64,000 nucleotides of DNA, from contig NC_135825.1 in the NCBI RefSeq assembly GCF_964213995.1, positions 12,276,001-12,340,000 on the forward strand. The letters are read 5' to 3'. The translations under genes were made by a program, and so were the position numbers. The notes under the pieces are model-generated. The model worked only from the letters and a program-made list of their open reading frames with translations. It did not search any database and was not told the origin of the DNA. This DNA comes from Mustelus asterias (lineage: Eukaryota). How positions within the stretch are numbered: the first letter of the stretch is position 1; every line of letters starts with the position of its first letter. Shown piece after piece: positions 4,393 through 61,440 of the stretch.

Positions 4393-4440
4393 TCATTTTC
4401 CCACTTTGGTCCAACTGTGAGAATTGGATTCATTGAGTGA
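4393..4440 (-). CDS. Gene A putative terminal cytoplasmic exon (SLNESNSHSWTKVGK*)
   Basis: Strong acceptor ttttcttttccag, phase 0, short ORF to TGA, ATTAAA/AATAAA signals downstream; same peptide in gene B. Not verified by transcripts. Confidence 0.5.
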   Translation of the reverse strand, partial: SLNESNSHSWTKVGK

Positions 4441-38600: not shown

Positions 38601-41600
38601 TCAGTACAAAAAGACCAGTTCAAGCCAGTTTCCCCAATTAACTATTCCAGTTGCTGCCAGTTATTAGCTTTCATCTTCCAGCTCATGTCCTTTGGATGAG
38701 ATTTAGACTTCAATCAGTACATGTCGTCAAAATGTTAAACAGTTCTCACAATTAAATCCCAGACAGCGATCAATAGATACGACTTGCAATTGGCCAAACT
38801 CCCACTGCCATCACTCTCTCTCTCTCTCTAACACTCTCCCTTCCTCCTCATACTCTGGATGAGATGTAGAAATATTGGTGACATGAAAGTATTTAATTTT
38901 TTGGTCATTCAATTTGTATCTGAATGTTTGTTCCTTTCCTACAGAACCCGTGTCTGTTCCTGAACTTATATTTCTATCACCACCAATTGTCTCATGTTCT
39001 GGGGGCTCCGTGTCCGTCTCCTGTGAGTCTGTCCAGGGATCACTTCCCATTCAGTACACATGGTATGAAAAGACCCCATCTGAAGATTCAAAGATCTCTG
39101 ACACCAATAAACTGGATCTCCATTGTCAATCCTTCACACAGCAACATCATCAATATTACTGCACAGCCTCAAATAACCAGGGAGAAAAATCCAGTGAAAC
39201 GGTTACAGTGTCAGTGATCAACAGATCAGGGGAGAATTGCAGTTGTGTGACACAGATCGACAGCTTTGGTGTGGCATGGACGGAAAGTGAGTGGTAAGAA
39301 ATACCATGATTTTGACCTAATAACGGTATGACAACAGGTGACACAGGGGCACTGTGGTTAGCAGTGCTGCCTCGCAGCACGAGGGATCCAAGTTCAATTC
39401 TGGCCTTGGGTGACTGTCTGCCTGGAGTCTGCACGTTCTCTGTACCTATGTGAGTTTCCTCCGTGTGCTCCGGTTTCCTCTCTCAGTCAAAGATCTGCAC
39501 AGAAATCTAACCTGTTTCTCTGGAGAGACACCTGTCGGTTTTCTCGCCGGAAACAACACTGTCATTTTTTGCTTAGCTTCCCCCCTACATGGCTAAAATG
39601 AGCCATTATCCTGCTCTCCCAGCATCTGAGCTAAATGTTTTACAGACACACCGACTGCCTCCAGAATAAAGCTGAATCTGTCAACAGCCCCCATAAACAT
39701 AAAACACAAGATTTGGGAAATCTGACTGAAAACTGTTGGTTCTGGCTCGAAGCAGGTTGGCTTTCTCTCCAGAACTTACCACATTCTGTCACAAAAAAAA
39801 CAGCTGGGCGTGTTTCACATCATCATGTAGGGGGCGGGGCCTCGATACACCAGCAAATCCTGGCTGCAGTAAGCTGACAGTGCACAAACATGGCGGCCCA
39901 ATCAAAACAAAATGTTTCCCCCAAATCCCACCACACCCCGGTCAGAGTCGGGGCATCCTCCTATTATGAGCCAGCAATTCTCCCCCCACATCACCCCTCA
40001 GCAGTCAGTGCTGACACCAAGCCCCTCCCCCAAATATCAAACCCTTCCTCCCTTCGTGCAGTCAGTGCTGGCACCACCCCCCTTCCCCCCGAACATTGGA
40101 GCCCTTCCCTCCAACCCTCCACCCACACAGCCATTGCCGACAAACCCAGCCCCTTCCCACAAACGGCTACTCCAGCTCCCCTGTCCGCTCCGGCCCACCC
40201 TCACTTGTAAATGAATAACCCCTCCCCCATGAGACTCCCACTGAGGTCCACCCCGGAACTGCCACTGGTACAGGTTGGCACTGCCAAATTGGCAATTTTG
40301 GGGTGGCATGGTGCCAACTTGGTAGTGCCAACCTGTGCCAAGGGAGAGTGCCAGAGGGCATTGCCAGGCCACTGCCTGACCATATCCCTCTTGCCCAGGA
40401 AGGGGGTTCCCCATCATGTCCAGGTGAACCTGTTGTAAAATGCACCAATATAATGTCACGTTGCCCTGGTTTGAAAACACAGCGAGGGCTCAATATCTGG
40501 GGCGGGGGACGGGGGGGTGGGGAGAGGGGCGGTGGGGGTCGGTGGGGGGTCTTGAATGATATCCAAATATATTAAAATGTTTGTAAATCAGGTTCTCACC
40601 CACTATGGTGGTGAATCTGATGAAGCCACCTGCGCCCTCCAGGTTTTGCCAGATATTGAATCCCCAACAGCATTCCTGTGGTCCCCCAACCCGGGCTCAC
40701 CATCCCACCCAGTGGCTGTGTTTACATAATGCTATTGTGTTAGCTTCCTAACAAGTTGCTGCTTCTGTCAGTGGAAATTCAGACTAAAAAGTGAGCTTTC
40801 TCTGTTTGCCACACCTTAGATGTTGCAGTTTTCATTATTCATGTTAATCACTTCACCGTGAACCCAATCTCATGGAGTTGTGCTTGTCACACTCCAGCGA
40901 TGCCAGATTCCCTTAACCCGGTGTGTTCTGGAGTATCGCTGACAGGAACATTGCATTCACTGTCATCTTCTCCTTCTCAGTTGCCCAGTTTAATACATTG
41001 TTCCCAAACTGAGGCCATCTGCTTCCGGCTGGTTCCGAATTTCCTGTTAGGAGGTGCACCAGGGAATTGTGGGATGATGAAAACAGAAAGTGATGGAAAA
41101 ACTCAGCAGGTCCGGCAGCATCTGTGGAGAGAGGAGCAGAGTTAATATTGAGTGGAATATGATTCTACTTTGAAACAGTGTGGGATGATGTTATTGGAAG
41201 TTTCTTACTCACTGAACAGATATCTCACCAATGTTATGTTGCACCAGACAATGTTTCTGTCCCAATGACCAGTCAATTCATAACATTCTTACTTCTAAGA
41301 TTTTACTCAGCATTCCAGATATACTGAGGAAAGTTAATGAAACCAGCTCCATTTGATCTGTATCTAATGATCATGAAGTTGATCAGTGAAACTTTAGTTG
41401 ATTGCTCCAGCTAACGTGCCTTGTCTGTGCGACGTTGCTACAATAGGTCACAGTGTAAAGAGGAGATTAATGTTTCAAACACGAAGCTGCCTCATTCCCT
41501 TCAAATCATTCTGTATTTCTTCCAGTTTGCTCAGTTCCTTCATCTGGAATGTGATTCGCTGGGGGCTCTTTACCCTCCTGGTGATTTGTGTGATTTCGGT

Positions 41601-43736
41601 CACATGGTACACGAGAAAATCTCAGGTGAGGATTATGGACTTTACAACAATCATTCTGAGCACTTTGTAATTATCACAGATATTGTGCAGAGAAACTTGC
41701 ACTGATGTCAATGTCCACAGGATTAAACACGGGGGGGAATTTTACCTTTCATTTCCAAGTGTGGCAGGGGCAGGAAAAGGGGCGGTGAAGAAATATGGTG
41801 AAGAATATGTGTATAAATGTTGAAGGGACAGGATACTGCCCATCCCACCAGAAATTTCAGTTTCTTAAAGATCAAAATGATATTTTTGAAAGTCAACTTG
41901 ATGCACAAAAGTGAAAATGAAACCCCCCTCCCCTTGCACAACCCCATGCACACCTCCCCCCCGCCCCCCCCGCCGCCCCCCCCATCCCCTGACACTGCCT
42001 CTGGCACTGACCCCTGGCACTGCATGGACGCTGCCCCAGCAGTGACCCTTGGCACTGCATGGACACTGACACTGGGGCACTGACCCCTGGCACTGCATGG
42101 ACACTGACACAGGCATTGACAACTGGCACCGCATGAACACTGACCCCTGATACTGCATGGACGCTGCCCCAGCATTGACCCCTGGTACTGCATGGACACT
42201 GACACTGGCACTGACCACTGGCACTGCATGGACACTGTCCCCGCACTGACCCCTGGCACTGCATGGACACTGACACTGGCACTGACCATTGGCGCTGCAT
42301 GGACACTGTTCTATTTCACGGGATGTGGACGTCACTGGCAAGGGCAGAATTGTTGCCCATCCCTAATTGCCAGATCCGAGTGGCTTGCTTGGCCATTTCA
42401 GAAGACAGTTCGGAATCAAACCCATCGCGGTGGGTCTGGGGTCACATGGAGGTCAGACTGCATAAGGAAAACAGATATCCTTCCGTGAACGATATTAGTG
42501 AGCACTTATGACAATTTATGACCGTTTATCACCATCTCCAACCAACCAGATGGGTTTTTACAACAATTGATGACAAGTTTCCTGGTCACCATTGGTCAGA
42601 TTTTCAATTCCAGATTGATTCATCAATTGAATTTGAATTCATTGCATTTATATTCCACCAGCTACTATGTTGAAATCATGTTCCCAGCACTTTATTATCA
42701 GCCTCTGGATTACTAGCCCAGTGACATTGACACGAAACCACCATCTCTGCAATATCAATACATCAGAATGATACAGGGAAGAATGGAGTAAATTATGTGC
42801 AGACATTGCACAAATTTGCTGCATTTCCTCACACTTGGAGGTTGCTGGGATCGGTGATTGAAGTTTTTATGGGATTCAGTATGGTGGGTACAGAGAAACT
42901 CTTTGCCCAGTGGGGAGATGGAGTACACGGGGCCATAACCCAAAAGTGAGGGCTTAGATACTTAGGAGTGAAATTAGAAAGTATTATTTTCACACAGCTA
43001 GTCATGGAAACCTGGAACTAATCCATCCTAAAATCTGTGGATGCTGGGCCAATTAGAATTCTCACAGCTGGGATTAGATAAGACAGGGACCCAGGTTCGA
43101 TTTTGGCCTTGGGTGAGTGTCTGTGTGGAGTTGCAGGTTGGTGTGACAGGCTCGAGGAGCTGAATGAGCTGCTCTTGTTGCTGTGTTCCTGTGTAACCCA
43201 TCCATGGAAGCACCCTTCCATCTTATCATCCAATCTTATTAAACTGTCAGCAAAAGGAAAAGGAAGGAAATTGGAAAGGTTATAAAAAGGCAACAGGGCT
43301 GACTGTTTCTGGACAGGAACTGGAGGAGATTTCAAATGATTCAGACTGCAGTAAGAGGCTGAGACACAGACCCAATGATGTTGTTGCTGGAAGCACCAAC
43401 TGGACTGTATAAAATATTTTTAGAAACATGGACATAGCAATCAATTTCTCCAGTCAATTGTCCATAATCACAGCTTCAGGGGAACATTGGTTTTCTGTGG
43501 GTAAATAAGGTTATGTGTCTTCATGAAGGATCCAAACGAGTGTTTCCCAGCGCACATGCAAAGGGCGATCAATGTGATCTCGAAACTGCCCCAAATTGTT
43601 GCCATTTCCAGAATTCTTTTCAAGACTGAAATGTCAATTGATGCATTGTTCTCCCAGTCTCAATGAATCTGATGATTTTCTTTTCCAGTCACTCAATGAA
43701 TCCAATTCTCACAGTTGGACCAAAGTGGGAAAATGA
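26582..43736 (+). CDS. Gene B: spliced pIgR/CD300-like Ig-superfamily receptor, L-(V-C2)x3-TM-short tail. Predicted exons 26582-26618, 29752-30072, 33274-33597, 35256-35564, 36852-37175, 37839-38147, 38945-39293, 41526-41625, 43689-43736; about 706 aa
   Basis: GT-AG introns with phase-1 junctions between Ig exons. Lengths sum to 2121 nt in one open frame. Confidence 0.8.
27251..27915 (-). mobile_element. CR1-type LINE 3' end inserted only in intron 1 of gene B
   Basis: RRNLFTQRVVNVWNSLP peptide and microsatellite tail; the site is empty in genes A (near 17630) and C (near 63628). Confidence 0.85.
28935..29065. repeat. 21-bp tandem repeat, about 6 copies, in intron 1 of gene B (about 2-3 copies in gene A near 16250-16300)
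   Basis: Unit CCAAAGAGTAACTTTCCCCTC. Confidence 0.85.
29752..30072 (+). CDS. Gene B V1 exon (pIgR/CD300-type V domain)
   Basis: GRSITINCNY..KYWCHGWTERC..DAGLYRCGI; 321 nt, canonical splice sites. Confidence 0.9.
30715..31250 (-). mobile_element. CR1-type LINE 3' end
   Basis: ALERLQKRFTRMLPG..RRLRGDLIEVYKIM..FFTQRVV. Confidence 0.9.
33274..33597 (+). CDS. Gene B C2 exon 1
   Basis: EPVSVPEL..CESVQGSLPIQYTWY..YYCTASN; ttcccacag acceptor and G|GTAAAT donor. Confidence 0.88.
33845..34197 (+). mobile_element. Full-length tRNA-derived SINE (HE1/V-SINE-like), specific to gene B
   Basis: Box A/B head (TAGCACAGTGG..GGTTCGATTCC), central GTGTGGAGTTTGCAC domain and (TTTCTATGA)n tail. The site is empty near 37410 and 11465. 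Confidence 0.88.
35256..35564 (+). CDS. Gene B V2 exon (shortened C-C' region)
   Basis: APSALWAKNKVTGVLGRSITIDCHY..KTWSRQC..DAGWYSCGI; 309 nt; ttttcag acceptor and G|GTACAT donor. Confidence 0.85.
36852..37175 (+). CDS. Gene B C2 exon 2
   Basis: Near-identical to C2 exon 1; 324 nt; canonical splice sites. Confidence 0.87.
37839..38147 (+). CDS. Gene B V3 exon (near copy of V2)
   Basis: APSALSAKNNVTGVLGRSITIDCHY..DAGWYSCGI; 309 nt; ctttccag acceptor and G|GTACAT donor. Confidence 0.85.
38945..39293 (+). CDS. Gene B membrane-proximal C2 exon 3
   Basis: C2 motifs, ends ..NCSCVTQIDSFGVAWTESE; donor TG|GTAAGA (phase 2). Confidence 0.82.
41526..41625 (+). CDS. Gene B transmembrane exon with N-x-x-R motif
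   Basis: ttcttccag|T TTG CTC..; peptide WNVIRWGLFTLLVICVISVTWYTRKSQ; donor CAG|GTGAGG. Confidence 0.85.
43689..43736 (+). CDS. Gene B putative terminal cytoplasmic exon (SLNESNSHSWTKVGK*)
   Basis: Polypyrimidine acceptor, phase 0, TGA at 43734-43736, ATTAAA near 43853 and AATAAA near 44003. Confidence 0.5.
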   Translation, partial: SLNESNSHSWTKVGK

Positions 43737-44265
43737 AGATTCCGGGATTCCATCCACATCGAAGGAATTTTGCATCCTGGTCAAATATTCAATCCTCATC
43801 CAGCTTTGAACATTTCTTTTAACAAATCTACATAATAGAATGTTTTTTCATTATTAAATGAAGTCTGAAAGATGTGTTGGTTCGGGTGCATTGGCCATGC
43901 TGAATTCTCGCTCAGTGACCCGAACCGGCGCTGGAGTGTGGCGACTGGGGGATTTTCACAGTAACTTCATTGCAGTGTTAATGGAAGCCGACTTGTGACA
44001 CTAATAAAAAAACAAAAACCAACCAACATGATTTCGACCAAACATTGAGTGGAGGAATCAAAATCCAAACCGTGGTTGTGACCTTCAGGTTGTATATCGA
44101 CATCTGGAGAATAATTGATCTGTTTGCTGATTAAATGTCTATATTTCTTGTTTCATATTCTCATCTTACTCTTTGTCAATTTAAAGATGAACAAATTCTG
44201 TTAGGAATTGGCAACATGATTTTTTTCATGCACTGGATATCAGTCGCTCCAATGATATATTCCAC

Positions 44266-44327
44266 GATGATATATTGCTACCAAATGAACCTGTTGGACT
44301 TTAACCTGGTGTTGTGAGACTTCTTAA
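44266..44327 (+). mobile_element. Short Penelope-like tail insertion specific to the gene B arm
   Basis: TGCTACCAAATGAACCTGTTGGACTTTAACCTGGTG flanked by duplicated ATATTCCACG; absent near 3870 in the left arm. Confidence 0.6.
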
Positions 44328-44339
44328 TATTCCACGTTC

Positions 44340-45930
44340 CCAGGGATGGAACAATGCGCCTGTATAACCTCAGAATGGGAAATTCCTTGGATTCGTCTAA
44401 CTTCAGTTATTGGATAAATGTCAGAATCAATTATTAAGGAGAGAATATCAGGGCCTTTGGAAAGTTATAATGTGATCAGGCAGAGTCAGGTTGGGTTCAT
44501 GAAGGGAAAGTCATGCATGGCAAATTTACTAGAGTTCTTTGAGGAGGAATCAATCAGAGTAGATAGAGGAGAACCAGTCAATGTTGTATATTTGGATTTT
44601 CAAAAGGCATTTGATAAGGTACCATACAAAATGTTAATACGCAAGATGGTTTTGTAGGGAATATTCTGGCATGGATAGAGGATTGGCTCATGTGAAAATA
44701 TTGTGAATTAAGGAATGTATTGTCACGTTTCTTACGCAGGATCTGTTTTCGCAGATTCTTTTTTGTTACCCATGCCGCTTTGTCCAGCAGCAGTGTGTTG
44801 TTACTGCAGCAGCATAATTGCTCCTAATTGCAAGGATGTTTGTTTTAATCTGGACTAATGTTTTTCTGTTTTATTTTCAGTGGGCCCCTGGGGTTTTGCA
44901 GAGTAGGGCTTGATTAGTATGAGTGACAGGTGCAATCGTATCACTGGGTGGAGCTAGGTTTACACAGAAAGATCAAGTCAAATTCTGCTTTGAGTTGTTA
45001 GAGAGTAGTGCCTCTCAGTTTCCCTCTCTGAAGTTGGAGACTGGAATTTGCCAGGAAACAAGTCTCTTTCTCTGAGAAGGTGATGTTTTGGAAGCTGCAG
45101 AGTGAGGAATCCATTTCCAATTCTGATGTCTGAAGACTGGGAGTTGCCACAGACTAGGTTTACTTCTCTGAAGTTCTGTTGTTTGGAATATATCCTTCTC
45201 TAGAAAGTGCTGTCCTGCTGTTTGACTGGAGGTGCTAAAAGGCTGGAAACCAAGTGTTCATGAAGCATATTTGCTTTCTTTGCAAACTGTTTCTCAAGAT
45301 GGGATATATGTCTCACTGAGGGATGTGCTAAATTGGAACAATAGAGATCGCAAGCTTGTAAGAATTATACTTTGTCATGTTTAAGTATTTTAATTGGTAA
45401 AAGTTATGCTAATTCTTTTTTGTTAGATTCTAACTGTTTCTTAAGTAAAGTTAGTTTTGACTAAAGTTTCCTCGTGGGTCACTTGAATCATACCTGAAGT
45501 AAAACACCTTATGTTCACCCTAATTCCAAAATCAAATCTAAAAGGTTGGGTCTCGGCTAACTTTATGAAACACCTTGGAGTGTCTGGTCTGGTCCCTTAA
45601 TGGAGGACACGACAGGGTGGATGTTGAGAGACACTACAACTCACCGACACCATTTAAATATAAGGTTTCTCCCATTGAAGACAGAGATGAGAAGATTTAT
45701 TTTCTCTCAGAGGGTTGTGAATTATTGGAACTCTCTTTCCCAGAGAGTGGTGGAGGCAGAGTCAATAAATATTTTTCAGATAAAGCTTGGAAGATTCTAG
45801 ACTAACAAGGAAGTCAAAGATCAGTGGGTTATAAAGTTCAGGTCACAATCAGATCAGCCATGATATTATTGAATGACAGATGAGGCATGAGGGGCTGAAT
45901 GGCCTACTCGTGTTTCTAATTTGTATGTAG
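44340..45930 (+). mobile_element. CR1 RT fragments interrupted by an LTR-like repeat (about 44691-45572); mirror copy at about 2260-3860, minus
   Basis: GFMKGKSC..NLLEFFE..VYLDFQKAFDKV, then a TG..CA non-coding block with a poly(A)-like signal, then RRFIFSQRVVNYWNSL. No TSD found for the LTR-like part. Confidence 0.7.
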
Positions 45931-46036: not shown

Positions 46037-48088
46037 ACCGGCAGCGAAGCCTACAGCCCGGGCCTCCTGCTGTGCACGGCCCACATCAAAGTTTATGTAC
46101 TGTCCTGCCCAGGCACACAGGGCATCTGTGACCTGCTGCACACATCTGTGCATGGAGGCCTGGGAGATCCCACTGTTGTACCTGTAAAACCTCAGATAAT
46201 TTCGGCCATTTTACTCACTCAGACGTTTTACCCTGGTGCCCTTATTTGCAAGATGGACAAAGGACAAACTCAGGTAGTCGTTCAATAACTTTATTAAGAA
46301 TAACACTATTAACCCTTAAATTACCCACATAAAACAAGAGGTTAACCCAGATTCAAGTGTACCAACCGCAAAGGTGGTTTGGTTAAACTGCAGGCCCGAT
46401 TCTCTGAGACCCTCTGGTCCGTCGTCACGAAGGTGATTCTCGATGGCAGCTTCTTCCTTCCTTCCTTCTCTGGCCAGTCTTCCGGATGGTTAATGTCGCC
46501 TCCCTCATCGAGTCTTCGCTGCTGGTATATCCGAGATGCGTACATTTGTCCCCCTCCCCCTCCGCCTTTCCAGAAACTTCTCTGGCTTCCAGCCAATGAG
46601 GTCTCGGGAGGGGGTTCCAATACCCAGGTGTACGAGCACCTCACACAGGTGCCGCACCGTGCTCTTGGACAGCCGCAGCCACTGATGGCACATCGCCTCC
46701 GAGAAGGCCTCAAATGAATTCCAGGGCCTGTACCTCCTTGCCCTCTGCACCCTCCGCCTAATGTGCACCCATTTGGGAGATGACTCACCCACCTCCTGGC
46801 CCTCAGTGGCAGCCCCCTGCCCTCCTTTCTGAGGGACTGGTATTGGCTGCTCCTGCGGTGTTCTCCCCACACTCTCCACCTCCTGAGCTGCCTCCTCCTC
46901 TTCCTCATCTGCCACCATAATGGCCAGCTCCAAATCGACCAGTCCAAGATCCATCTGCACAGAGGGGTTTGGAAAGAGCAAAGAATGACAGATTAATGTC
47001 ATTGGCTGCATCGACCCAGCATCAACCCAATCCCTCACTTGGGCCGGTACACGCACTTGTGGGAGCTGGCAACACCACACAATCCTTGGTGCCATGCGTG
47101 ACCTGATTAGGTTGTGTGAGCTTCCCATCATGACAAATGCTGGCACAGATTATGCAGGTCGGTGTGCAGCCGTGGGCAATGCGCGCCCTTGAGCCATTGC
47201 CATGTTTACAACTGCAGCATCCGTTACAGGCAGGTGTTGCTGGTCATTGTCACGGGGCAGAGACAGACTGCAAATCAGCACCAGATGGGTGCCCAGAGAC
47301 AGCAGATCCCATGCAGTCTATGTCTGAACCTCAGCACCCCGGCCTGGAGCACCAGCTGGTTCTTCTGGTTGGGCCTCAGTCAGCACATGGTGCACTCCTC
47401 CCCCCCGCCCCCCCCTTTCCCCCCAGAACCCCAGCACTCAGTGCAGTCTCTGACCACCCCCCCGCAGCAAGACAATGCCACTGCACAGTGCCCTCAAGGG
47501 GAAGGCTGAGCACAACTCCTTCAATGCCCCTCCCCCACAGAGCTCTGAGAAAATAAACCACCCCCCCCCCGACCCCCCGCCCGCCCCCCCGCCCCCCCCC
47601 CCCCACCTCAGGTATCACTGGTCCATGGGCCAGCCCCTGAACACAGCCAGGAGGAAGTCCACCAAGCATCTCCAGGGCCTGCCTGCCAGCAACATCCCCC
47701 GCACTCTGCTCACTTCAGGTCCTCATCACTTCCCTCCTCACACCTGCTCAACGCTGCCACGCCAGCTTGAGACTTTTCTAAACCGACCCTGATTCGGGCC
47801 AAATGGACATCACACCAAAGAGGTGGGAGACGCTAACGTGGGCGGAGCTTGCCGTGTCGATCCTGATAATGGAATGCTAAAGTATGGTAAGTTATGCAAA
47901 TTAGCGGTAGACCGGCTATCAGCGCGGTCCCAACGGTGCCATTTGTTTTCCGGTTGGGAGATGCGCGCGGCTCGTAAACGCTCGCGGGGATCCCGGGAAA
48001 TGGCCGACACGCACATCTCCCAACCCGACGCGCACAAAACTTCGCGGGTCGGAATGGGAGAATCGCACTCCCCGCCCGCACCCCCCTC
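46037..48088 (-). mobile_element. Second, internally deleted copy of the Harbinger element (no Gypsy insertion)
   Basis: Near-identical to 51926-52520 plus 53015-53784 plus 58505-59175. Confidence 0.75.
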
Positions 48089-50412
48089 TAATCTTTGCCT
48101 CAGCAGCAACACTTGTCTGATGACATTCCTGTAAAATGCCGGAGGAGGTTTTACTGAGTGAAAGGTACTTTATAAAGAGCAAGTTATTGTTGTTGTTGTT
48201 GATTCCACGAATGAGTTAATAATAAAAAATGAACCTGTTTCTCCACCCAAGGCTGTGGTCAGTGAGAGTTCTAACTTTAGATTTACTCAGAGAGAAGTTC
48301 TTACCCACGTGTAACAGATTGTAATCAGAGTTCTGAATTTTCCAAATGATTCCAATGTTTGATCATTTTTTATTGAGTATAGAATTCTGTGAGTGACGGC
48401 TCCATCCTAAATAAGCACCAATTTACAGCAATATTCCATTAACTCCTCAAATTCTTTAACGGTTGATGAGAAAGGCAAAGAGAGAGATTGACATTGGAAA
48501 TAAATGTGGGTTCATGTTTGCTGCAACTTGCAATGTTCATGGTTTGAAACTGCAAGAAAAATGTGTTGCTGCCCTCAGGATAGTGTGAGATAGAAACACT
48601 GTGAATGTACAATAGGTGTCAGATACCAAATGCAGAGCTGTGTTTGCAGCAGTGAGAAGATCAGCATTGACACAGAATTTGTCACAGGCAAACAGCACGG
48701 GTGTTGCTACATTTCTTGAACATCAGATGATGCAGGGTGAAGAAGGAATGACCAGGGATCATATCAGCTCCACCATGGTGCGGACAAGTTACCCCAGAGA
48801 GAGGCATCAGGGAGTGAATATTAGAAACCTAGGGGGGCGATTCTCCCAAAAGTGCTGAATTTGTGGGAAAACTGTTCGAGATCACGACTGTTTTTTCAGT
48901 GCAGTTTCTCACTCGAATCTCCGCACTCTGTGCAATGCTGAATTCACAATCGGGAATCTTATTGAACACCCAGGGGGCGGGGCCTATTTACGCCGGAGTC
49001 TGACAGCTCCGGAACTCTGAGCATGTGCAGTGGCCCCGATCTGTCAGTCTCCCCGTTTGCTGGCCAGCCCGATCGCGGCCCCACGACAATTCCCAGGCCA
49101 GCCGTGACGCCCCCCCCCCCCGGCCCGGAGCATCCCGCTATCCAGCCCAGCCCCACCAGCAGTGGCGATCCCCCCATTCCCCTCACCCTGATAGAACCCT
49201 CCGCCCTGCTGACCACCCCCCCCCCGCCCCCAGAGTCAGACCCCCCCATGCCCGGGAGGCAGGCCCCCCCCGTACAACCACACCCCCAGCCCACCCCGAT
49301 CACTGGCCTCCCTCCGTCCACTCAGATCGATCGCCATGCAGAGTGGCAGCGGGACCCCCCACCCCCACCGATTGCCCCTACGCCCCACCCACAATAGGCC
49401 CCAACACCTTAGCACTGCCCGATGACTGGTGGGCTCTGTCAAGGTACCTCTGGGCATGGACACTTTGCTACTTGGGAAGTGCCAAGGGGCACAGGTTGGC
49501 ATTGCCAGGGTGCCCATACCCAGGGGGCACCAATCTCCCCCACTGCCCAAACACCTGGGAGGCCCCGATTGCTCCCCCTTCGTTCCGGCGGGTTCTCCTG
49601 CTCATTCCCTGAAAGTGGGGATCTTCTCCAAACCCCGCCGGAATGAAGTGCTCCTGGTGGGGTGGGAGATTCAATCGGGCCCGGCAAGTTCCCGATAATT
49701 GCATGCAAAAACATATTCAAACAAGTTAGTTTTGACTAAAGTTTCCTCGTGGGTCACTTGAATCATACCTGGAGTAAAACACCTTATGCTCACCCTAATT
49801 CCAAAATCAAATCTAAAAGTTTGGGTCTCGGCTAACTTTATGGAACACCTTGGAGTGTCTGGTCTGGTCCTTAATAGAGAACATGACAGGGTGGATGCTG
49901 AGAGACGCTACAACTCACCGACATCATTTCAATACAATGTTTCTCCCATTGAAGACAGAGATGAGAAGATTTATTTTCTCTCAGAGGGTTGTGAATTTTT
50001 GGAACTCTCTTTCCCAGAGGGTGGTGGAGGCAGGGTCAATAAATATTTTTCAGATAAAGCTTGGAAGATTCTAGACTAACAAGGAAGTCAAAGAGTATCA
50101 CGGTCAGTGGGATATAAAGTTGAGGTCACAATCAGATCAGCCATGATATTATTGAGTGACAGATTAGGCATGAGGGGACGAATGGCCGACTCCTGTTCCT
50201 AATTTGTGTGTTTGTATGCAGTGACTTTGCTCGGCAAAAGCCCCTTTAATGAGTTTCAGCGCATATCTGTCCAGGTGATAAATTTAAAGAGTGTTATTCC
50301 ATATCTCACATGACATATTGTTGTGACACCTGTCGGGTGCCCTTCACTCATGTGTATGAGCTCATTGAGTGGTTCCCAAAATCAAATAAACTCAATATTA
50401 AATTCTCATTCT

Positions 50413-50895
50413 CTCCCCCCCCATACTGACATCACTGGCCTCATCTCCCCCCTCCCTCCCCCCCATACTGACATCACTGGCCTCATCTCCCCCCTCCCTC
50501 CCCCCCATACTGACATCGCTGGCCTCATCTCCCCCCTCCCTCCCCCCCATACTGACATCACTGGCCTCATCTCCCCCCTCCCTCCCCCCCCATACTGACA
50601 TCGCTGGCCTCATCTCCCCCCTCCCTCCCCCCCATACTGACATCGCTGGCCTCATCTCCCCCCTCCCTCCCCCCCATACTGACATCGCTGGCCTCATCTC
50701 CCCCCTCCCTCCCCCCGATACAGACATCACTGGCCTCATCTCCCCCCTCCCTCCCCCCCATACTAACATCACTGGCCTCATCTCCCCCCTCCCTGCCCCC
50801 CATACTGACATCACTGGCCTCATCTCCCCCCTCCCTGCCCCCCATACAGACATCACTGGCCTCATCTCCCCCCTCCCTGCCCCCCATACAGACAT
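50413..50895. repeat. 42-bp minisatellite, about 11.5 copies, truncated by an assembly gap
   Basis: Unit ATACTGACATCACTGGCCTCATCTCCCCCCTCCCTCCCCCCC. Confidence 0.95.
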
Positions 50896-51390
50896 NNNNN
50901 NNNNNNNNNNNNNNNNNNNNNNNNNNNNNNNNNNNNNNNNNNNNNNNNNNNNNNNNNNNNNNNNNNNNNNNNNNNNNNNNNNNNNNNNNNNNNNNNNNNN
51001 NNNNNNNNNNNNNNNNNNNNNNNNNNNNNNNNNNNNNNNNNNNNNNNNNNNNNNNNNNNNNNNNNNNNNNNNNNNNNNNNNNNNNNNNNNNNNNNCTAGT
51101 TTGATTGGCCAGGTTAAAATTGCCCCTTAGTGGTCCTGGGATGCGTAGATTAGAGGGATTAGCGGGGTAAAATATGTAGGGATATAGGGGTAGGGCCTGG
51201 GTGGGATTGTGGTCGGTGCAGACTCGATGGGCCGAATGGCCTCTTTCTGTACTGTNNNNNNNNNNNNNNNNNNNNNNNNNNNNNNNNNNNNNNNNNNNNN
51301 NNNNNNNNNNNNNNNNNNNNNNNNNNNNNNNNNNNNNNNNNNNNNNNNNNNNNNNNNNNNNNNNNNNNNNNNNNNNNNNNNNNNNNNNNN
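50896..51390. other. Assembly gaps: 200 N (50896-51095) and 135 N (51256-51390) around a SINE fragment
   Basis: N runs in the sequence. Confidence 0.99.
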
Positions 51391-52910: not shown

Positions 52911-53784
52911 TCACCACCGGGTGCCTGAAATGACCCAGATGCAAAAAAGGTTCAGGGCAGCCGTCACCTTAACTTCCACAGGGAGCGGGTGGCCACCCTT
53001 CCCCTGAGGTGCCAGGTGTGCGAGCACCTCACATAGGTGCCGCACCGTGCTCTTGGAGAGCTGCAGCCAGTGATGGCACATCGCCTCTGAGAGGGCCTCA
53101 AATGAATCCCGGGGCCTGTACCTCCTTGCCCTCTGCACCTTCTGCCTTCTGTGCACCCTTTCGGGAGACTGCTCACCCACCTCCTGGCCCTCAGTTGCCT
53201 CCTTCCTGAAGGACTGGTATTGGCTGCTCCTGCGGTGTTCTCCCCACAGTCTCCACCTCCTGAGCTGCCTCCTCCTGATCTGCCACCATAATGGCCAGCT
53301 CCAAATCGACCAGTCCAAGATCCATCTGCACAGAGGGGTTTGGAATGAGCAAAGAATGACAGATTAATGTCATTGGCTGCATAGACCCAGCATCACCCCA
53401 ATCCCTCACTTGAGCCGGTGCCCCCACTTGTGGGAGCTGTCAACACCACACAATCCATGGTGCCATGCGTGACCCGATTAGGGTTGTGTGAAATTCCCAT
53501 CATGACAAATGCTGGCACAGATTATGCAGGTCGGTGTGCAGCCGTGGGCAATGCGCGCCCTTGAGCCATTGCCATGTTTACAACTGCAGCATCCGTTACA
53601 GGCAGGTGTTGCTGGTCATTGTCACGGGGCAGAGACAGACGGCAAATCTGCACCAGATGGGTGCCCAGAGACAGCAGATCCCATGCAGTCTCAGTCTGAA
53701 CCTCAGCACCCCGGCCTGGAGCACCAGCTGCTTGTTCTGATTAGGCCTCAGTCAGCACATGGTGCACTCCTCCCCACCGCCCCC
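52911..53784 (-). mobile_element. Harbinger element 5' part and transposase N-terminus; continues at 58505-59175 beyond the Gypsy insertion
   Basis: EAMCHHWLQLSKSTVRHLC..HPLPVEVKVTAAL resembles the Harbinger transposase N-terminal region. TIR-like GCGATTCTCCC lies near 59150 on the minus strand. Confidence 0.7.
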
Positions 53785-54078
53785 TGATGCACCTCAATGA
53801 GCACCCGGAAACAAGGCTTTAGAACTGAAGGCTTTAATACATTAACAATGAAACTACTAACACAAATTCACCCGTTCAGACTGAAGGGGTCCTGCCGGAG
53901 CAGGGGGTCTTATACCCTGCCACCGGAGGCGGGACCCCACTGGAGTGTGCCATGATAACACTTGGGACAGGTAAACACCCTAACCCAACAACATAGTACA
54001 ACCCCCATAACAACAACACCCTAGCCCAACAGTAACACAATAACAACCCCAGTGGTGAACCAACGATGGTTCACCACA
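53785..54078 (-). repeat. 3' LTR
   Basis: Direct repeat of 58211-58504, preceded by the polypurine tract on the minus strand. Confidence 0.92.
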
Positions 54079-54150
54079 TTCACCCCTCCTTTAGGAACCA
54101 AAGGTGGCGGGGTGGATGAAAACAGACAATGACAAAAAAAATAACAGGAT

Positions 54151-57100
54151 TCACAAGTCCAGACGGTCTGGAGGACCACACCGACGCTGCGATCTTCTCA
54201 ACACCGGTTGCGAAACCGGAGCAGGTGCTTGCGGTGGCTCTCTCAAAGCAACATCTGGCTGTCCCCTCAAAGACTCCCGGGCCGGCCGGCCCTGATGAGG
54301 CGATGGTGTAGGGGATCCTGGAACGTTTGGTGGTGGTGGTGGTGGTGATGATGGTGGCGCCGATCTCCGAGTCTCAGGCAAGCTGTACATGGGAGTAAAA
54401 GTGTTATGCACTGGTCCCGGTGCTGACCGCGCCACGTCTGGGGAAGTAATGAGGAGTAGTGGATCTGTGACTGGGGGAATAGGAGCGACAGGAGTTGCTA
54501 CGTCCCCTGCGGGCGCCAGGTCTCTAATGGAGACAGTGTCCTCTCGCCCGTCAGGATATGCCACATAGGCATACTGAGGGTTGGCGTGGAGGAGTTGGAC
54601 CGGTTCGACCAAGGGGTCGGACTTGCGAGCCCTCACATGGCGCCGCAGAAGGACGGGTCCTGGGTACGTCAACCAGGCTGGCAATGAGGTCCCCGAGGAC
54701 GACTTCCGAGGGAATGAGAACATCCTCTCGTGGGGAGTAGCATTGGTTGCCGTACACAGGAGGGAGCGGATAGAATGGAGCGCAGTTGGAAGGACCTCCT
54801 GCCACCGGGAGACTGGAAGGCCCTTGGATTTCAGTGCCAGTAGGACAGCCTTCCAGACTGTAGCATTCTCCCTTTCCACCTGTCCGTTACCCCTAGGGTT
54901 GTAGCTCGTGGTTCTACTAGAGGCAATCCCGAATGAGAGCAGGAATTGCCTCAAGTCGTTGCTCATGAACGACGAGCCCCTGTCGCTATGAATATAGCAG
55001 GGGTACCTGAACAGGGTAAAAAGCTCACTGAATGCCTTGATGACGGTGGCAGTCGACGTGTCCGCACAGGGGAAAACAAACGGAAACCGGGAAAATTCGT
55101 CTATTATGTTAAGAAAATAGACATTCCGATCCGTTGAGGGAAGGGGGCCCTTAAAATCTACACTCAGCCTCTCAAAAGGGCGAGTGGCCTTGACCAAATG
55201 TGCCCGGTCTGGTCGATAAAAGTGTGGTTTGCATTCTGCGCAAATCCGACAACTTCTAGTAACTGACCTGACCTCCTCCACCGAGTAGGGTAGGTTGCGG
55301 GCTTTTATGAAGTGGTAGAGTCTGGTGACTCCAGGATGACACAGATCATTGTGGAGAGCCTTCAAGCGGTCCTCCTGCATGATGGCGCATGTTCCGCGCG
55401 AGAGGGCATCCGAGGGCTCATTGAGCTTCCCTGGACGATACATAATATCGTAATTATAGGTGGAGAGCTCAATTCTCCACCGCAAGATCTTATCGTTCTT
55501 GATCTTGCCCCTCTGCGTGTTACTGAACATAAACGCCACGGATCGTTGATCCATGATCAGGGTGAACCGCTTACCTGCCAGATAATGGCGCCAGTGTCTG
55601 ACTGCCTCCACAATGGCCTGAGCCTCCTTTTCCACCGCTGAGTGCCGAATCTCTGGGCCTTGAAGGGTGCGGGAAAAAAACGCGACGGGCCTGCCTGCCT
55701 GGTTTAGTGTGGCAGCTAGGGCGAAGTCCGATGCATCACTCTCCACCTGGAAAGGGATGGATTCATCCACCGCGTGCATCGTGGCTTTCGAGATGTCGCT
55801 TTTCAAAACCTTGAAGGCCAATTGGGCCTCCGGCGTAAGTGGGAAGGTCGTGGACTTAATGAGCGGACGAGCTTTGTCCGCGTAGTTGGGGACCCACTGT
55901 GCATAATACGAAAAGAACCCGAGGCATCTCCTCAGTGCTTTCGTGCTAGCGGGCAAGGGAAGTTCAGTGAGTGGGCGCATACGGTCTGGATCAGGGCCAA
56001 TGACCCCGTTTTCCACCACGTATCCGAGGATGGCTAACCTACGCGTACGGAATACGCACTTCTCCCTGTTATAGGTCAGATTCAGGCGAGATGCAGTGCG
56101 TAGAAAGTGTTGGAGATTCGTGTCGTGGTCCTGCTGGTCATGGCCGCAGATGGTGACGTTATCCAGGTACGGGAAGGTAGCCCGCAACCCGTTCTGGTCC
56201 ACCATTCGGTCCATAGCACGCTGGAAGACCGAGACCCCATTGGTGACACCAAATGGAACCCTGAGGAATTGGTATAGACGACCATCCGCCTCAAAAGCCG
56301 TATATTGTCGGTCCTCTGGGCGGATGGGGAGTTGATGGTAGGTGGACTTAAGGTCTATGGTAGAAAACACTCGGTACTGCGCAATCTGATTGACCATATC
56401 AGAAATGCGCGGGAGAGGATACGCATCCAGCTGCGTGTATCTATTAATGGTCTGACTATAGTCGATGACCATCCGAGGTTTGTTCCCGCTTTTGACTACC
56501 ACGACCTGCGCTCTCCACGGACTAGCACTGGCCTGTATGATCCCTTCCTTGAGGAGCCGCTGAACCTCAGATCTAATAAAGATCCGGTCCTCAGCGCTGT
56601 AACGCCTACTTTTAGTAGCGATGGGCTTGCAACCAGGTACCAGATTTTTAAAAAGGGATGGTGTCGTGATCTTCAGGGTGGATAGATTGCACGCGGGGCG
56701 CTTTGGGCAATTTGGAGGCTGCGGCTGGTTCCCTACTGCCAGTGAAGGGAGTGGCCCACCGTACTGTAGGATCACACTCCTCATGTGGGCCATAAAGTTT
56801 AGTCCGAGGAGAATTGGCGCGCAAAGGTGAGGTAGCACAAGGAGCCTGTATTGCTCGTAAACTGTGCCCTGTACCTCAAGAGTTACCATACATCGTCCTT
56901 GGATCGGTGCAGACCGGGACTGTGATGCCATGGAAATTGTCTGTTTGGCAGGGAGAACCCGGAGTCCACACCTTTTAGCAGTTTCAGGGTGTATGAAACT
57001 TTCGGTGCTTCCACTGTCAAACAGACAATTCACAGTTCTGCCACTAACCTTTACCTCCATCATGGAATGTTCCAGTCTGTAATGCCTGGCCTGATCCAGA

Positions 57101-58188
57101 GAGATCGACGCCACCGTTGGCCCCTGGGCGTCACTGCATGCTGCCGATGTGGATGCTGAGGACCCCTGCTGGTCGCTGCTGCATGCTGCCGATGTGGATG
57201 CTGAGGACCCCTGCTGGTCGCTCCTAGTCGTCGTGGACCATGATGGCCGCCCCCATGAATCGCATGTGGCCGAGGGCTCCAAGCGCAGCGACTCCTGGTG
57301 GTCTTCCTCCTCCTCTGTCTGCCACGATGGCGCCGTCCTGAGATCGCACGTGGTCGGACCTCGTGGGTACTGCGACGCCGAAAGAGATGGTCTCCGTTCA
57401 GGAGGGTTACAAGCTGCACTGCCGTTTTTAGGTTTGGACCTGCAGACTTTGCCGTAGTGGCCTTTTTTACCGCACTGGCTGCAGATAGCCGTTCTTGCCG
57501 GACACTGTTGCCGTGGATGCTTGGCCCCACCGCAAAAATAGCATCGCTGGCCACCTGGAGCTGCCGCCGTCGTCGAATCGATCTGGGAGCGCGGGTTCGC
57601 GGGGTGAGGAGGGAGCAGAGCTTGCTCCAACCACGTTGACTGCACGTGGTCCTCGGGGTACAGCGCCAAGCTCTTCGACGCCACCTCCAACCTCACGGCC
57701 ATCCCCATTGCCTGGGTCAAGTTGAGTTTCCCCTTTTCTAATAATTTAAGTCTGATGTACGAGGACCCTACCCCTGCTACGAACGCGTCTCGGGCGAGGT
57801 CTTGCATGTACTGCTCGGCGGAGACATCCTTACAGTCACAACCCCTGGCAAGCTGCAGGAGTTCATTGGCGTAGTCTTCTATGGTCTCGCCCGACTGCCG
57901 ACGTCGTGTAGCGAGGAGATAACGAGCGTGAATCTCGTTGGGTGGCGTAATGTACCTATTCTTTAGGAGCTCGACGGCACCCTGGTAAGTGGAAGCTGCA
58001 CGAATGGCTAGGTAAATCGTGTCGCTTACCCTTGCGTGGAGGACCTGGAGTCTATCACTGTCTGTAGTGATAGCTACCGAGGCTGCCAGGTAGTCCTCGA
58101 AGCACTTCCACCAATGTTCGAACATGTTAGCTGCACCGACCGCACGTGGGTCCAGTGTCAGACGATCCGGTTTTAGGATCTGTTCCAT
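54151..58188 (-). CDS. Gag-Pol polyprotein, about 1345 aa from the first ATG: Gag with two CCHC knuckles, aspartic protease, RT, RNase H, integrase
   Basis: CYFCGGAKHPRQQC and CSQCGKKGHYGKVC; LFDSGS; RMVIDYS..PFGV..YLDN; ESDASD; H..H..CRIC plus SVDFKG, HSDRG and ERE. The order PR-RT-RH-IN is Gypsy. Confidence 0.95.
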   Translation of the reverse strand: MEQILKPDRLTLDPRAVGAANMFEHWWKCFEDYLAASVAITTDSDRLQVLHARVSDTIYLAIRAASTYQGAVELLKNRYITPPNEIHARYLLATRRRQSGETIEDYANELLQLARGCDCKDVSAEQYMQDLARDAFVAGVGSSYIRLKLLEKGKLNLTQAMGMAVRLEVASKSLALYPEDHVQSTWLEQALLPPHPANPRSQIDSTTAAAPGGQRCYFCGGAKHPRQQCPARTAICSQCGKKGHYGKVCRSKPKNGSAACNPPERRPSLSASQYPRGPTTCDLRTAPSWQTEEEEDHQESLRLEPSATCDSWGRPSWSTTTRSDQQGSSASTSAACSSDQQGSSASTSAACSDAQGPTVASISLDQARHYRLEHSMMEVKVSGRTVNCLFDSGSTESFIHPETAKRCGLRVLPAKQTISMASQSRSAPIQGRCMVTLEVQGTVYEQYRLLVLPHLCAPILLGLNFMAHMRSVILQYGGPLPSLAVGNQPQPPNCPKRPACNLSTLKITTPSLFKNLVPGCKPIATKSRRYSAEDRIFIRSEVQRLLKEGIIQASASPWRAQVVVVKSGNKPRMVIDYSQTINRYTQLDAYPLPRISDMVNQIAQYRVFSTIDLKSTYHQLPIRPEDRQYTAFEADGRLYQFLRVPFGVTNGVSVFQRAMDRMVDQNGLRATFPYLDNVTICGHDQQDHDTNLQHFLRTASRLNLTYNREKCVFRTRRLAILGYVVENGVIGPDPDRMRPLTELPLPASTKALRRCLGFFSYYAQWVPNYADKARPLIKSTTFPLTPEAQLAFKVLKSDISKATMHAVDESIPFQVESDASDFALAATLNQAGRPVAFFSRTLQGPEIRHSAVEKEAQAIVEAVRHWRHYLAGKRFTLIMDQRSVAFMFSNTQRGKIKNDKILRWRIELSTYNYDIMYRPGKLNEPSDALSRGTCAIMQEDRLKALHNDLCHPGVTRLYHFIKARNLPYSVEEVRSVTRSCRICAECKPHFYRPDRAHLVKATRPFERLSVDFKGPLPSTDRNVYFLNIIDEFSRFPFVFPCADTSTATVIKAFSELFTLFRYPCYIHSDRGSSFMSNDLRQFLLSFGIASSRTTSYNPRGNGQVERENATVWKAVLLALKSKGLPVSRWQEVLPTALHSIRSLLCTATNATPHERMFSFPRKSSSGTSLPAWLTYPGPVLLRRHVRARKSDPLVEPVQLLHANPQYAYVAYPDGREDTVSIRDLAPAGDVATPVAPIPPVTDPLLLITSPDVARSAPGPVHNTFTPMYSLPETRRSAPPSSPPPPPPNVPGSPTPSPHQGRPARESLRGQPDVALREPPQAPAPVSQPVLRRSQRRCGPPDRLDL

Positions 58189-58210
58189 ATTCTCAGTTAA
58201 TGTATTAAAT

Positions 58211-58504
58211 TGATGCACCTCAATGAGCACCCGGAAACAAGGCTTTAGAACTGAAGGCTTTAATACATTAACAATGAAACTACTAACACAAATTCACCCG
58301 TTCAGACTGAAGGGGTCCTGCCGGAGCAGGGGGTCTTATACCTTGCCACCGGAGGCGGGACCCCACTGGAGTGTGCCATGATAACACTTGGGACAGGTAA
58401 ACACCCTAACCCAACAACATAGTACAACCCCCATAACAACAACACCCTAGCCCAACAGTAACACAATAACAACCCCAGTGGTGAACCAACGATGGTTCAC
58501 CACA
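58211..58504 (-). repeat. 5' LTR (TATAA at about 58340, Inr-like TCAGT near 58308, ATTAAA near 58264)
   Basis: Direct repeat of 53785-54078; promoter and poly(A) motifs read on the minus strand. Confidence 0.92.
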
Positions 58505-61440
58505 CCCCCCCCCCCCCTTTCCCCCCAGAACCCAGCACTCAGTGCAGTCTCTGACCACCCCCGGCAGCAAGACAATGCCACTGCACAGTGCCCTCAAGGG
58601 GAAGGCTGAGCACGACTCCTTCAATGCCCCTCCCCCACAGAGCTCTGAGAAAATAAACCCCCCCCCCCCCCCCCTGCCAGCCCCCCCCCCCCCCACCTCA
58701 GGTATCACTGGTCCATGGGCCAGCACCTGAAGACAGCCAGGAGGAAGTCCACCAAGCATCTCCAGGGCCTGCTTGCCAGCAACATCCCCCGCACTCTGCT
58801 CACTTCAGGTCCTCATCACTTCCCTCCTCACACCTGCTCAACGCTGCCACGCCAGCTTGAGACTTTTCAAAACCGACCCTGATTCGGGCCAAATGGACAT
58901 CACACCAAAGAGGTGGGAGACGCTAACGTGGGCGGAGCTTGCTGTGTCGATCCTGATAATGGAATGCTAAAGTGTGGTAAGTGATGGAAATTAGCGGTCG
59001 GCCGGTTTTCAGCGCGGTCCCAACGGTGCCATTTTTTTTCCGGTTGGGAGATGCGCGCGGGTCGTAAACGCTCGCGGGGATCCCGGGAAATGGTCGACAC
59101 GCACATCTCCCAACCCAACGCGCACAAAACTTAGCGGGTCGGAATGGGAGAATCGCCGCCCCCCGCCCGCGCCCCCCTCTAATCTTTGCCTCAGCAGCAA
59201 CACTTGTCTGATGACATTCCTGTAAAATGCCGGAGGAGGTTTTACTGAGTGAAAGGTACTTTATAAAGAGCAAGTTATTGTTGTTGTTGTTGATTCCACG
59301 AATGAGATAATAATAAAAAATGAACGTGTTTCTCCACCCAAGGCTGTGGTCAGTGAGAGTTCTAACTTTAGATTTACTCAGAGTGAAGTTCTTACCCACG
59401 TGTAACAGATTGTACTCAGAGTTCTGAATTTTCCAAATGGTTCCAATGTTTGATCATTTTTTATTGAGTATAGAATTCTGTGAGTGACGGCTCCATCCTA
59501 AATAAGCACCAATTTACAGCAATATTCCATTCACTCCTCAAATTCTTTAACGGTTGATGAGAAAGGCAAAGAGAGAGATTGACATTGGAAATAAATGTGG
59601 CTTCATGTTTGCTGCAGTTTGCAATGCTCATGGTTTGAAACAGCAAGAAAAATGTGTTGCTGTCCTCAGGGTGGTGTGAGACAGAAACCCTGTGAATGTA
59701 CAATAGGTGTCAGATACCAAATGCAGAGCTGTGTTTGCAGCAGCGAGAAGATCAGCATTGATACAGAATTTGTCACAGGCAAACAGCACGGGTGTTGCTA
59801 CATTTCTTGAACATCAGATGATGCAGGGTGAAGAAGGAATGACCAGGAATCATATCAGCTACACCATGGTGTGGACAAGTTACCCCAGAGAGAGAGGCAT
59901 CAGGGAGTGAATATTAGAAACCTTGGGGGCGATTCTCCCAAAAGTGCTGAATTTGTGGGAAAACTGTTCTGGATCACGACTGTTTTTTCAGTGCAGTTTC
60001 TCACTCGAATCTCCGCACTCTGTGCAATGCCGAGGTCACAATCGGGAATCTTATTAAACACCCAGGGGGCGGGGCCTATTCACGCGGGAGTCTGACAGTT
60101 CCGGATCTCTGCGCATGTGCAGTGGTCCCAATCTGGCAGTCTCCCCGTTTGCTGGCCAGCCCAGGACCCTCACAGTGCTGTCCCTCAGGCCCCCCGCACA
60201 CCTTGATCGCGGCCCTCAAGACAATTCCTGGGCCAGCTCTGACCCATCCCCCGCCCCAGAGCGCCCCGATGACCAGCACACCCACCCAGTGGTGGCGATC
60301 CTACCAGCCCCCTCACTCCATCAGAACGCCCCCACCCCCGCCACAGCCTGCCCTGATCGCTGGCTTCCCCCCATCCCAGACCGATCGCCATGCAGAGTGG
60401 CAGTTTGACACCCCTCACCACTGATTACCCCCAGGCCCCACCCACAATGGGCCTCGCCCCCTTGTCATTGCCCGATGCCCGATGGGCAGCGCCAAGGCAG
60501 TCTCTGGGCATGGACAATTGGCACCTTGTGCAGTGCCGGGGGCACAGGCTGGCACTGCCAGGGTGTCCATGCCCAGGGGGGCACCTGACCCCCGCACCTG
60601 ACCCCCTGTGGGGCTCCGATTTTGCCCCCTTCATTCCGGTCGGGTCTCCCGCTAGTTCCCCAAATGTGGGGATCTTCTCTAAACCCCGCGGGAATGAAGT
60701 GCTCCTGGTGGGGTGGGAGATTCAATCGGGCTCCCGGCAAGTTCCCAATAATTGAAAATCACTTACCCGTCTTCCCGCCGATTTCCAGCGTAGTCTGGAC
60801 TCCGACTGTTCTCCGTCTCTGGGAGAAGCGCATGTATTCCCGGGGCATGTGCAAATCCTGGAAAAAGGCCGATGACGCATAGCACCCAGCCTGAACCGCC
60901 GGAAAAGTTGCAGATCACGAGAATCACCCCCCGCTCTAGAAACTACAGAACAGAAGGAATTGATTCAGCTCATTGTGCCCGAGTTGGCTCACTGAACAAT
61001 AGTCAAACTCAGTCCCAAATCCTCAATTTTCACAAGTGAGAAGGACCATCCCTGATTCATGACCCTCCTCGCCCTGTTAATTGTACCCACCATCCTCTCT
61101 GGGGCTAGCACTGACTGACCCGAGCGAATCCACCCCATTCAGCTCCTGCTTGGACCTTCATCGTTCCGAGACTGACTGCAGTCCCTGCAGCGACCACAGC
61201 TCCTGGTGGCGCTGCTGTGACTGAAGTGCTGCCAACCCCCTGATTGGCCAGCAGGTCTCCTATCCTTGCTGTAACTGTGCTTCAGTGGGCAGGAGAAGGA
61301 CTGCTCGCAGAGGCCAAGCCCAGGAACAGCCATGGCCTTGCCAGCCTCAGTGTAAAATCACTGAGAGCTCAGAGTGGGCAGGAACCCGGAAATAATCCCG
61401 TCACTGCAATTTTACGCACTCTCCCCACCGAAATACCTGC

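Follow-up and report, generated by a model that had tools for sequence, protein, structure and literature searches.

How does a Ty3/Gypsy retrotransposon without a tRNA primer site begin reverse transcription? This question is raised by one element on the minus strand of the window, by which we mean the whole stretch of 64,000 nucleotides of Mustelus asterias DNA analysed here (contig NC_135825.1, positions 12,276,001 to 12,340,000). The element is a young LTR retrotransposon with neither env nor a chromodomain. Its domain order is gag-PR-RT-RH-IN, its protein carries the RNase H acidic motifs, and the Ty3 RT is the nearest solved structure. In window coordinates, its main parts are the following.

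58505 to 58509, no strand: target site duplication GGGGG, with the other copy at 53780 to 53784; related copies also show 5-bp duplications.
58211 to 58504, minus strand: 5' LTR, TG...CA, 294 bp, with one mismatch to the 3' LTR.
54151 to 58188, minus strand: single gag-pol ORF of 1345 aa with two CCHC knuckles, protease, RT (YLDN), RNase H and integrase.
54079 to 54092, minus strand: polypurine tract (PPT).
53785 to 54078, minus strand: 3' LTR, 294 bp.

Past the 5' LTR the minus strand reads CATCA-A-TTTAATACATTAAC, and TGG is absent. The stretch at the primer position is complementary to the LTR itself, and the following features are involved.

58210, minus strand: one-base spacer A between the LTR end and the primer site.
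58196 to 58209, minus strand: primer binding site without TGG, the exact complement of 58259 to 58272.
58259 to 58272, minus strand: partner stretch in the 5' LTR, the predicted self-primer, with ATTAAA (58259 to 58264) at its 3' end.
53833 to 53846, minus strand: copy of the partner in the 3' LTR, containing the predicted working poly(A) signal, and the primer in a rival model.

A sequence-only reading of this locus had described the 14-mer at 58196 to 58209 as a perfect reverse complement of its own LTR at a site without TGG, which we confirm. The identical junction is present in 30 out of 30 close copies of the window element and the exact junction is found 484 times genome-wide; comparison with the 3' LTR served to verify the LTR end in 38 of 39 copies. 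With these counts, and with pairing that is kept between different sequences in related families, the complementarity is no chance match. When the RNA is folded from the predicted start, the 14 pairs have a probability of 0.95-1.0, and the whole segment has a z-score of -2.5. The same reading held that the pairing can form solely at the 5' end of the transcript. This is too strong: the 3' LTR also holds a copy of the partner, and pairing is therefore not restricted to the 5' end, although the primer site itself is unique to it.

None of the junctions examined starts with TGG. The complement of the 14-mer occurs 127 times outside an LTR context before A or C, and ARAGORN placed no tRNA over the match in the 30 of these 127 loci that were examined. 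This is a partial test of a point on which the sequence-only reading would have been given up, namely a host tRNA matching the site. Rfam detected no tRNA within the element. Among the representatives of 45 related families there are 41 distinct primer sites, each tracking its own LTR, which is hard to reconcile with host tRNAs. As a separate observation, the 14-mer recurs every ~8-14 kb in G000:C17:77407587-77500540, which is probably a large tandem array and likely unrelated to the element.

These families were collected from the same genome and from metagenome contigs. Motif searches for sister families in the own genome gave 76, 1052 and 4535 matches. From the own genome 126 loci were analysed; a junction could be recognised in 120 of them, and one inverted piece was excluded. 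A gag alignment led to 80 metagenome loci at 30-42% identity. We analysed 74 of them, leaving out six that matched only deep in gag, skipped 14 with short flanks or no CA-A motif and kept 60, with their LTR ends assumed from the CA-A motif. The resulting 179 loci fall into 45 clusters, and the medoid of each serves as family representative.

At least 12 of 13 positions pair in 37 of the 45 medoids and in 60 of 1980 swaps between families under the same register search; the families are related, so counts such as the 37 are not independent events. Positions 8-13, which lie outside the hexamer, are paired in 93% compared to 51% in the swaps. The pairing begins one base past the LTR end and ends at 13-16 nt, dropping off past position 15. 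The eight misses comprise the truncated contig L075, for which a separate look showed 14-nt pairing, probable deletions and offset copies. Complementarity and co-variation thus hold across the clade, in the same genome and in metagenome contigs, and the check for compensatory change in relatives proposed earlier came out in favour of the pairing. Database relatives are named in corals and a jellyfish, and no relatives were found in the viral contig set searched. As a negative control we used 20 of 150 Mag-like gag matches, whose longest inverted repeats are 5-10 nt; the control is weak, since it consists of decayed copies with unlocated LTR junctions. Two departures from the common layout were also seen. 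In L132 and L133 the complement is offset by ~5 extra bases past the LTR end. In L235, L277, L287 and L211 the primer site fits the LTR of a sister subfamily and not their own, which suggests recombination or priming between co-packaged RNAs.

The duplex carries signs of being inherited by templating. In the 40 of 45 representatives with at least 11 pairs there are 509 Watson-Crick pairs, no G-U pair and 11 mismatches, where the register was picked to maximise Watson-Crick pairs and the G-U count is therefore biased down. Across all 119 own-genome copies there are 1489 Watson-Crick pairs, 16 G-U pairs and 42 mismatches. Within a 48-copy cluster, variability over a 50-nt segment peaks at duplex positions 8-9, and one matched double change is found in at least four places of a 59-row gag tree, although this change is of CpG type and the tree has many open forks and one long row unplaced. 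A duplex that is nearly pure Watson-Crick yet fast-changing is what copying of the primer back into its binding site should produce. In Tf1, the primer is reported to be turned into DNA at the terminus of the cDNA (PMC11042837, in excerpt). Selection for a perfect duplex could give the same pattern. We set aside a contrast in G-U pairs with a neighbouring second helix (49 of 216 pairs), since the search for that helix favours G-U.

Where the partner lies in the transcript depends on the promoter, which we placed from two motifs.

58334 to 58340, minus strand: predicted TATA box TATAAGA.
58306 to 58310, minus strand: initiator TCAGT, a sequence motif, with the predicted start at 58308.

TATA together with TCA(G/T)T is present in 86 of 119 own-genome copies, at a spacing of 31-34 nt in 84 of the 86, and the start motif lies 50-55 nt before the 3' end of the partner in 72 of the 86. 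Because TATA and initiator are found ~50 nt before the partner end in these copies, the partner is probably internal to the transcript, ~36 nt past the predicted start. The internal position had been proposed from the window alone; conservation of the motifs in 86 of 119 copies speaks for it. The candidate poly(A) signal downstream of the predicted start was also borne out, with ATTAAA beginning 44 nt after 58308.

A different geometry of self-priming, with the start at or near the partner as in Tf1, or with a short LTR-derived RNA acting in trans, would match the known Tf1/Tj1 layout. Some sister families (L056, L226, L230) have TATATAA ~25 nt before the partner, and four discordant positions in two-LTR copies fit the partner of a sister subfamily, as would follow from trans priming or recombination. 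We nevertheless consider such a geometry improbable, given the TATA and initiator ~50 nt before the partner end, the lack, in all 119 copies, of any TATA box lying entirely in the interval 20-36 nt upstream of the partner, and the read-throughs of up to 28 nt described below.

At the 3' end of the partner, 35 of the 40 families have AATAAA or ATTAAA, and one more has a hexamer that takes in the following base; four of the 40 pair without a canonical hexamer in the partner. The metagenome families L076/L081, L082, L097 and L070 have the duplex with no canonical hexamer in the partner. GCC or ACC follows directly 3' of the partner in 34 of the 40 families, and at this flank a second helix is predicted.

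58250 to 58258, minus strand: 5' arm of the predicted second helix, from the first base past the partner (GCC...).
58215 to 58224, minus strand: 3' arm of the predicted second helix, at the U5 end.

The mean pairing probability of this helix over the 40 families is 0.64 compared to 0.36 in shuffled sequences; it lies above the shuffles in 28 of 40 families and reaches p<0.05 in 3 of 40, which gives the predicted helix moderate support. In the folding the hexamer has an unpaired probability of 0.00-0.04 at the 5' LTR and of 0.75-0.95 at the 3' LTR. The 5' poly(A) hexamer is thus predicted to be masked by the duplex with the primer site, with the four families lacking a hexamer showing that such masking would not be universal.

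The hairpin could have this masking as its sole role, or could stay perfect by template switching at an inverted repeat, while some other RNA primes. A canonical hexamer inside the duplex in 35 of 40 families, which folding predicts to be buried in the 5' LTR but accessible in the 3' LTR, would fit, as would a tRNA search that covered 30 of 127 loci. We regard it as quite unlikely: there is no TGG, the primer position has 41 different sequences, the pairing starts one base past the LTR end and stops at 13-16 nt, and four families pair without the canonical hexamer. Integrated by-products of reverse transcription also bear on it.

If the plus strand copies a self-primer, rare junctions are predicted that run on from the primer site as the reverse complement of the LTR. 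In the window family, all six junctions that deviate at the base after the site carry the predicted A and none carries C or G. Four of the six run antisense through R and U3, two of these four stemming from a single event that lies in a 9.9-kb duplication; another gains 3 nt before jumping inward, and the last is a point variant. The duplication, of at least 9.9 kb and 99.7% identity, carries the one aberrant insertion twice, at G000:C9:132232100-132242000 and 132620100-132630000. The same prediction in sister families yielded 11, 16 and 32 loci (2 of the 32 not fetched) against 0 control matches. Nearly all of the 63 candidate loci thus collected extend beyond the primer site with further reverse complement of their own LTR.

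An exact 5-bp target duplication flanks 44 of the 63 loci; the other 19 have none, some of these being too short. Among the 44 there are 27 with two U3 ends, 12 with U3 and U5 ends around an inverted part and 5 with normal ends. Two U3 ends together with a target duplication mean that the structure formed before integration, and these elements are most simply explained by a fold-back of plus strong-stop DNA ending in the primer site. Fold-backs could, on the side of a hairpin that only masks, follow a Ty3-like plus-strand transfer without primer copying (PMC5371799, in excerpt). Against chromosomal template switching stand both the formation of the two-U3 by-products before integration and the mirror-image inward extension that such switching should leave, for which all four matches (0/4) were ordinary LTRs in a small test.

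In eight loci the complement extends for 17-28 nt, with one mismatch in two of the eight, before the sequence switches back to sense; L161 from an unselected set is a further short read-through of 21 nt. Reading on for as much as 28 nt requires a primer that exceeds the duplex in length. Four by-products are LTR-sized. In L340 and L376 the minus strand leaves its template at the first base past the partner, both with 2-4 nt microhomology, whereas L346 leaves at +7 and L345 at a palindrome. Three longer cases, L330, L335 and L342, have the order LTR, A, primer site, followed by R, U3, PPT and ORF in antisense, running 645, 805 and 2749 nt past the LTR start; L335 and L342 have target duplications. 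The antisense segments of L330 and L358 stop 5 and ~10 nt short of the predicted start. As the junction point is set by the homology itself, these fossils do not map the cut. Two other readings of the loci were dropped. The antisense ends 5-10 nt inside the partner in L317, L324, L325, L339, L357 and L372 were rejected as strong-stop ends, because in L357 this point is where an internal deletion begins in what is a complete fold-back, and what looked like extension into the PPT in L313 and L315 proved to be the target duplication.

The integrated by-products back the tRNA-independent priming that had been proposed for the window element, and we think it very likely that the element primes reverse transcription with its own RNA. 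As to which copy of the partner primes, we lean towards the 5' copy, folded onto the primer site and cut right after AUUAAA as in Tf1. Transcription would start at 58308, and nt 37-50 would pair with the primer site, also concealing the 5' poly(A) signal, across a 49-nt loop that contains the second helix. RNase H cleavage frees the Tf1 primer. The RNase H of the window element would likewise cut at AAA^GCC and leave a capped primer of ~50 nt with 14 bases paired. Minus strong-stop DNA of ~48 nt would then transfer to the short stretch between hexamer and poly(A) site at the 3' end, and plus-strand synthesis would restore the primer site from the primer. In this way the site would follow mutations of the LTR, which would explain the strict Watson-Crick match.

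This 5' cut is favoured by the proximity of the partner, the adjoining helix, the presence of the RNase H acidic motifs, the precedent of Tf1 self-priming (bioRxiv 10.1101/2022.12.06.519325, PMC4600332 and PMC11042837, each in excerpt), the exact departures in L340 and L376, and GCC or ACC after the partner in 34 of 40 families. Other points count against it. L330, L335 and L342 arise most simply from a primer joined to the RNA 3' end. No short read-through ends at the predicted cap, with 17-28 nt seen and ~50 expected. The overlap for first-strand transfer would be just ~10-30 nt, and the loop of the duplex is only 24 nt in L078.

The RNA 3' end as primer, which the sequence-only reading had also named, stays a live rival. 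In this case the partner in the 3' LTR would sit on the primer site, on a circular or a second packaged RNA, and would be cut or trimmed to AAUAAA; strong-stop DNA would extend to the cap and transfer via the at least 36 bases from start to partner. The partner is indeed present at both ends, and L335 and L342, both with target duplications, as well as L330 run antisense through the PPT into the ORF. The distance from start to partner is conserved (72 of 86 copies at 50-55 nt), as a transfer overlap would be, 35 of 40 families have the primer end at the poly(A) hexamer, and the antisense ends of L330 and L358 fall close to the predicted start. On the other side, the 5' copy is just 24-72 nt away and folds onto the site at pair probabilities of 0.95-1.0, annealing of plus strong-stop DNA to the 3' end of a second RNA is another possible origin of the three long cases, and the template departures in L340 and L376 fall on the 5' cut position. 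Neither set of evidence is decisive; we give the 5' cut a modest preference and see priming by the 3' end as possible but rather doubtful. The same tentative standing applies to its widest form, in which a widespread animal Gypsy lineage would prime with the 3' end of genomic RNA trimmed to AAUAAA, the poly(A) signal would serve as terminator, 5' mask and primer, and ~1 in 100 window-family insertions would keep the joint of primer and cDNA.

The closest known systems are Tf1 and Tf2 of Schizosaccharomyces pombe, Tj1, Tosmo1-3 and the Tf1/sushi chromoviruses. They share with the window element the lack of a tRNA site, a primer position complementary to their own 5' LTR and neighbouring helices. 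In Tf1/sushi elements the primer is the first nucleotides of the RNA, whereas here the partner is 13-16 nt long, lies ~36 nt past the start predicted from a conserved TATA/initiator and ends at the poly(A) hexamer. Their integrase has a chromodomain, in contrast to 0 of 9 proteins here at E<=0.1. The Tf1 'pretzel' consists of three duplexes; folding of the present families gives a central duplex and one adjacent predicted helix, the latter with moderate support. As the chromodomain is absent in 9 of 9 proteins and the primer is seemingly internal, we do not file the lineage in the Tf1/sushi group, though it is Tf1-like in its working.

The HIV-1 hairpin masks the 5' poly(A) signal, and the hexamer is likewise predicted to be hidden in a stem here. 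HIV-1 is tRNA-primed and has its stem within R/U5, whereas in our element the masking strand is the primer site itself; the 5' poly(A) hairpin of HIV-1 is named in an excerpt of PMC6088434. Self-priming has further been predicted from complementarity between primer position and LTR for the plant elements Tcn1 (gypsy) and TAR/Houba/Osr-1 (copia) (PMC6317226, in excerpt). These belong to other lineages and hosts, and the available part of PMC6317226 mentions neither a poly(A) signal nor integrated by-products.

Within Gypsy, Mag-like elements likewise have a single gag-pol ORF and two CCHC knuckles, and there is distant gag similarity to P0013 and P0015, which we take to be Mag-like. The RT-RNase H identity is 52-65% inside the group compared to 30% to P0013/P0015. 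We presume a possible link of the window lineage to Cigr-1. The Cigr-1 and MolGy clades are named in PMC6238403. Excerpts give the Saci-2 clade a CCCH Gag motif and a 4-bp target duplication (PMC2582038, PMC12471100) and the CsRn1 clade a CHCC Gag motif, a tRNA-Trp site and a 4-bp duplication (PMC2582038). Membership in Saci-2 was rejected on the two CCHC knuckles and 5-bp duplications found here, and membership in CsRn1 on Gag motif and duplication length. We found no description of the feature in the freely accessible literature that we searched.

So far, self-priming has been demonstrated in Tf1, and most predictions of it concern chromovirus relatives and a single plant copia lineage. A separate and abundant animal lineage, present in thousands of copies in this genome, seems to have found a way of its own, in which the primer ends at the poly(A) signal. 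If true, these elements would not depend on a host tRNA and, we infer, could escape silencing by tRNA fragments. Annotation tools that demand a tRNA site would mislabel them. The integrated by-products let intermediates of reverse transcription be read from genome sequence alone, and they make the choice between 5' and 3' primer directly testable.

Several further features were noted in the element. The RT active site is YLDN and not YxDD (window 56158-56169, minus strand; RT residues 674-677). Most relatives likewise have YLDN, YIDN or YVDN, and YLDD is kept in two clusters, although the family is young and abundant; YLDN was absent from the text of the paper supplements searched. The gag ATG lies 7 nt 3' of the primer site (window 58186-58195, minus strand) and the predicted fold reaches over it, so the hairpin at the primer site might also affect gag translation. 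The LTR opens with a 26-nt self-complementary stretch (window 58478-58503), and sister families begin similarly. Between gag and protease, a tandem duplication (window ~57135-57225, minus strand) gives an in-frame repeat of a serine-rich peptide.

In the surrounding window, 47110-47867 matches 53482-53781 and 58658-58957 at 95-96% identity, and the Gypsy element appears to be inserted into a copy of a repeat that is also found near 47100-47900. Positions 2605-15926 and 29377-45597 form a long series of inverted arms at 93-97% identity, which suggests a large inverted duplication. Two tandem arrays are also present, with a unit of 71 nt at 6696-7780 and a unit of 42 nt at 50332-50927.
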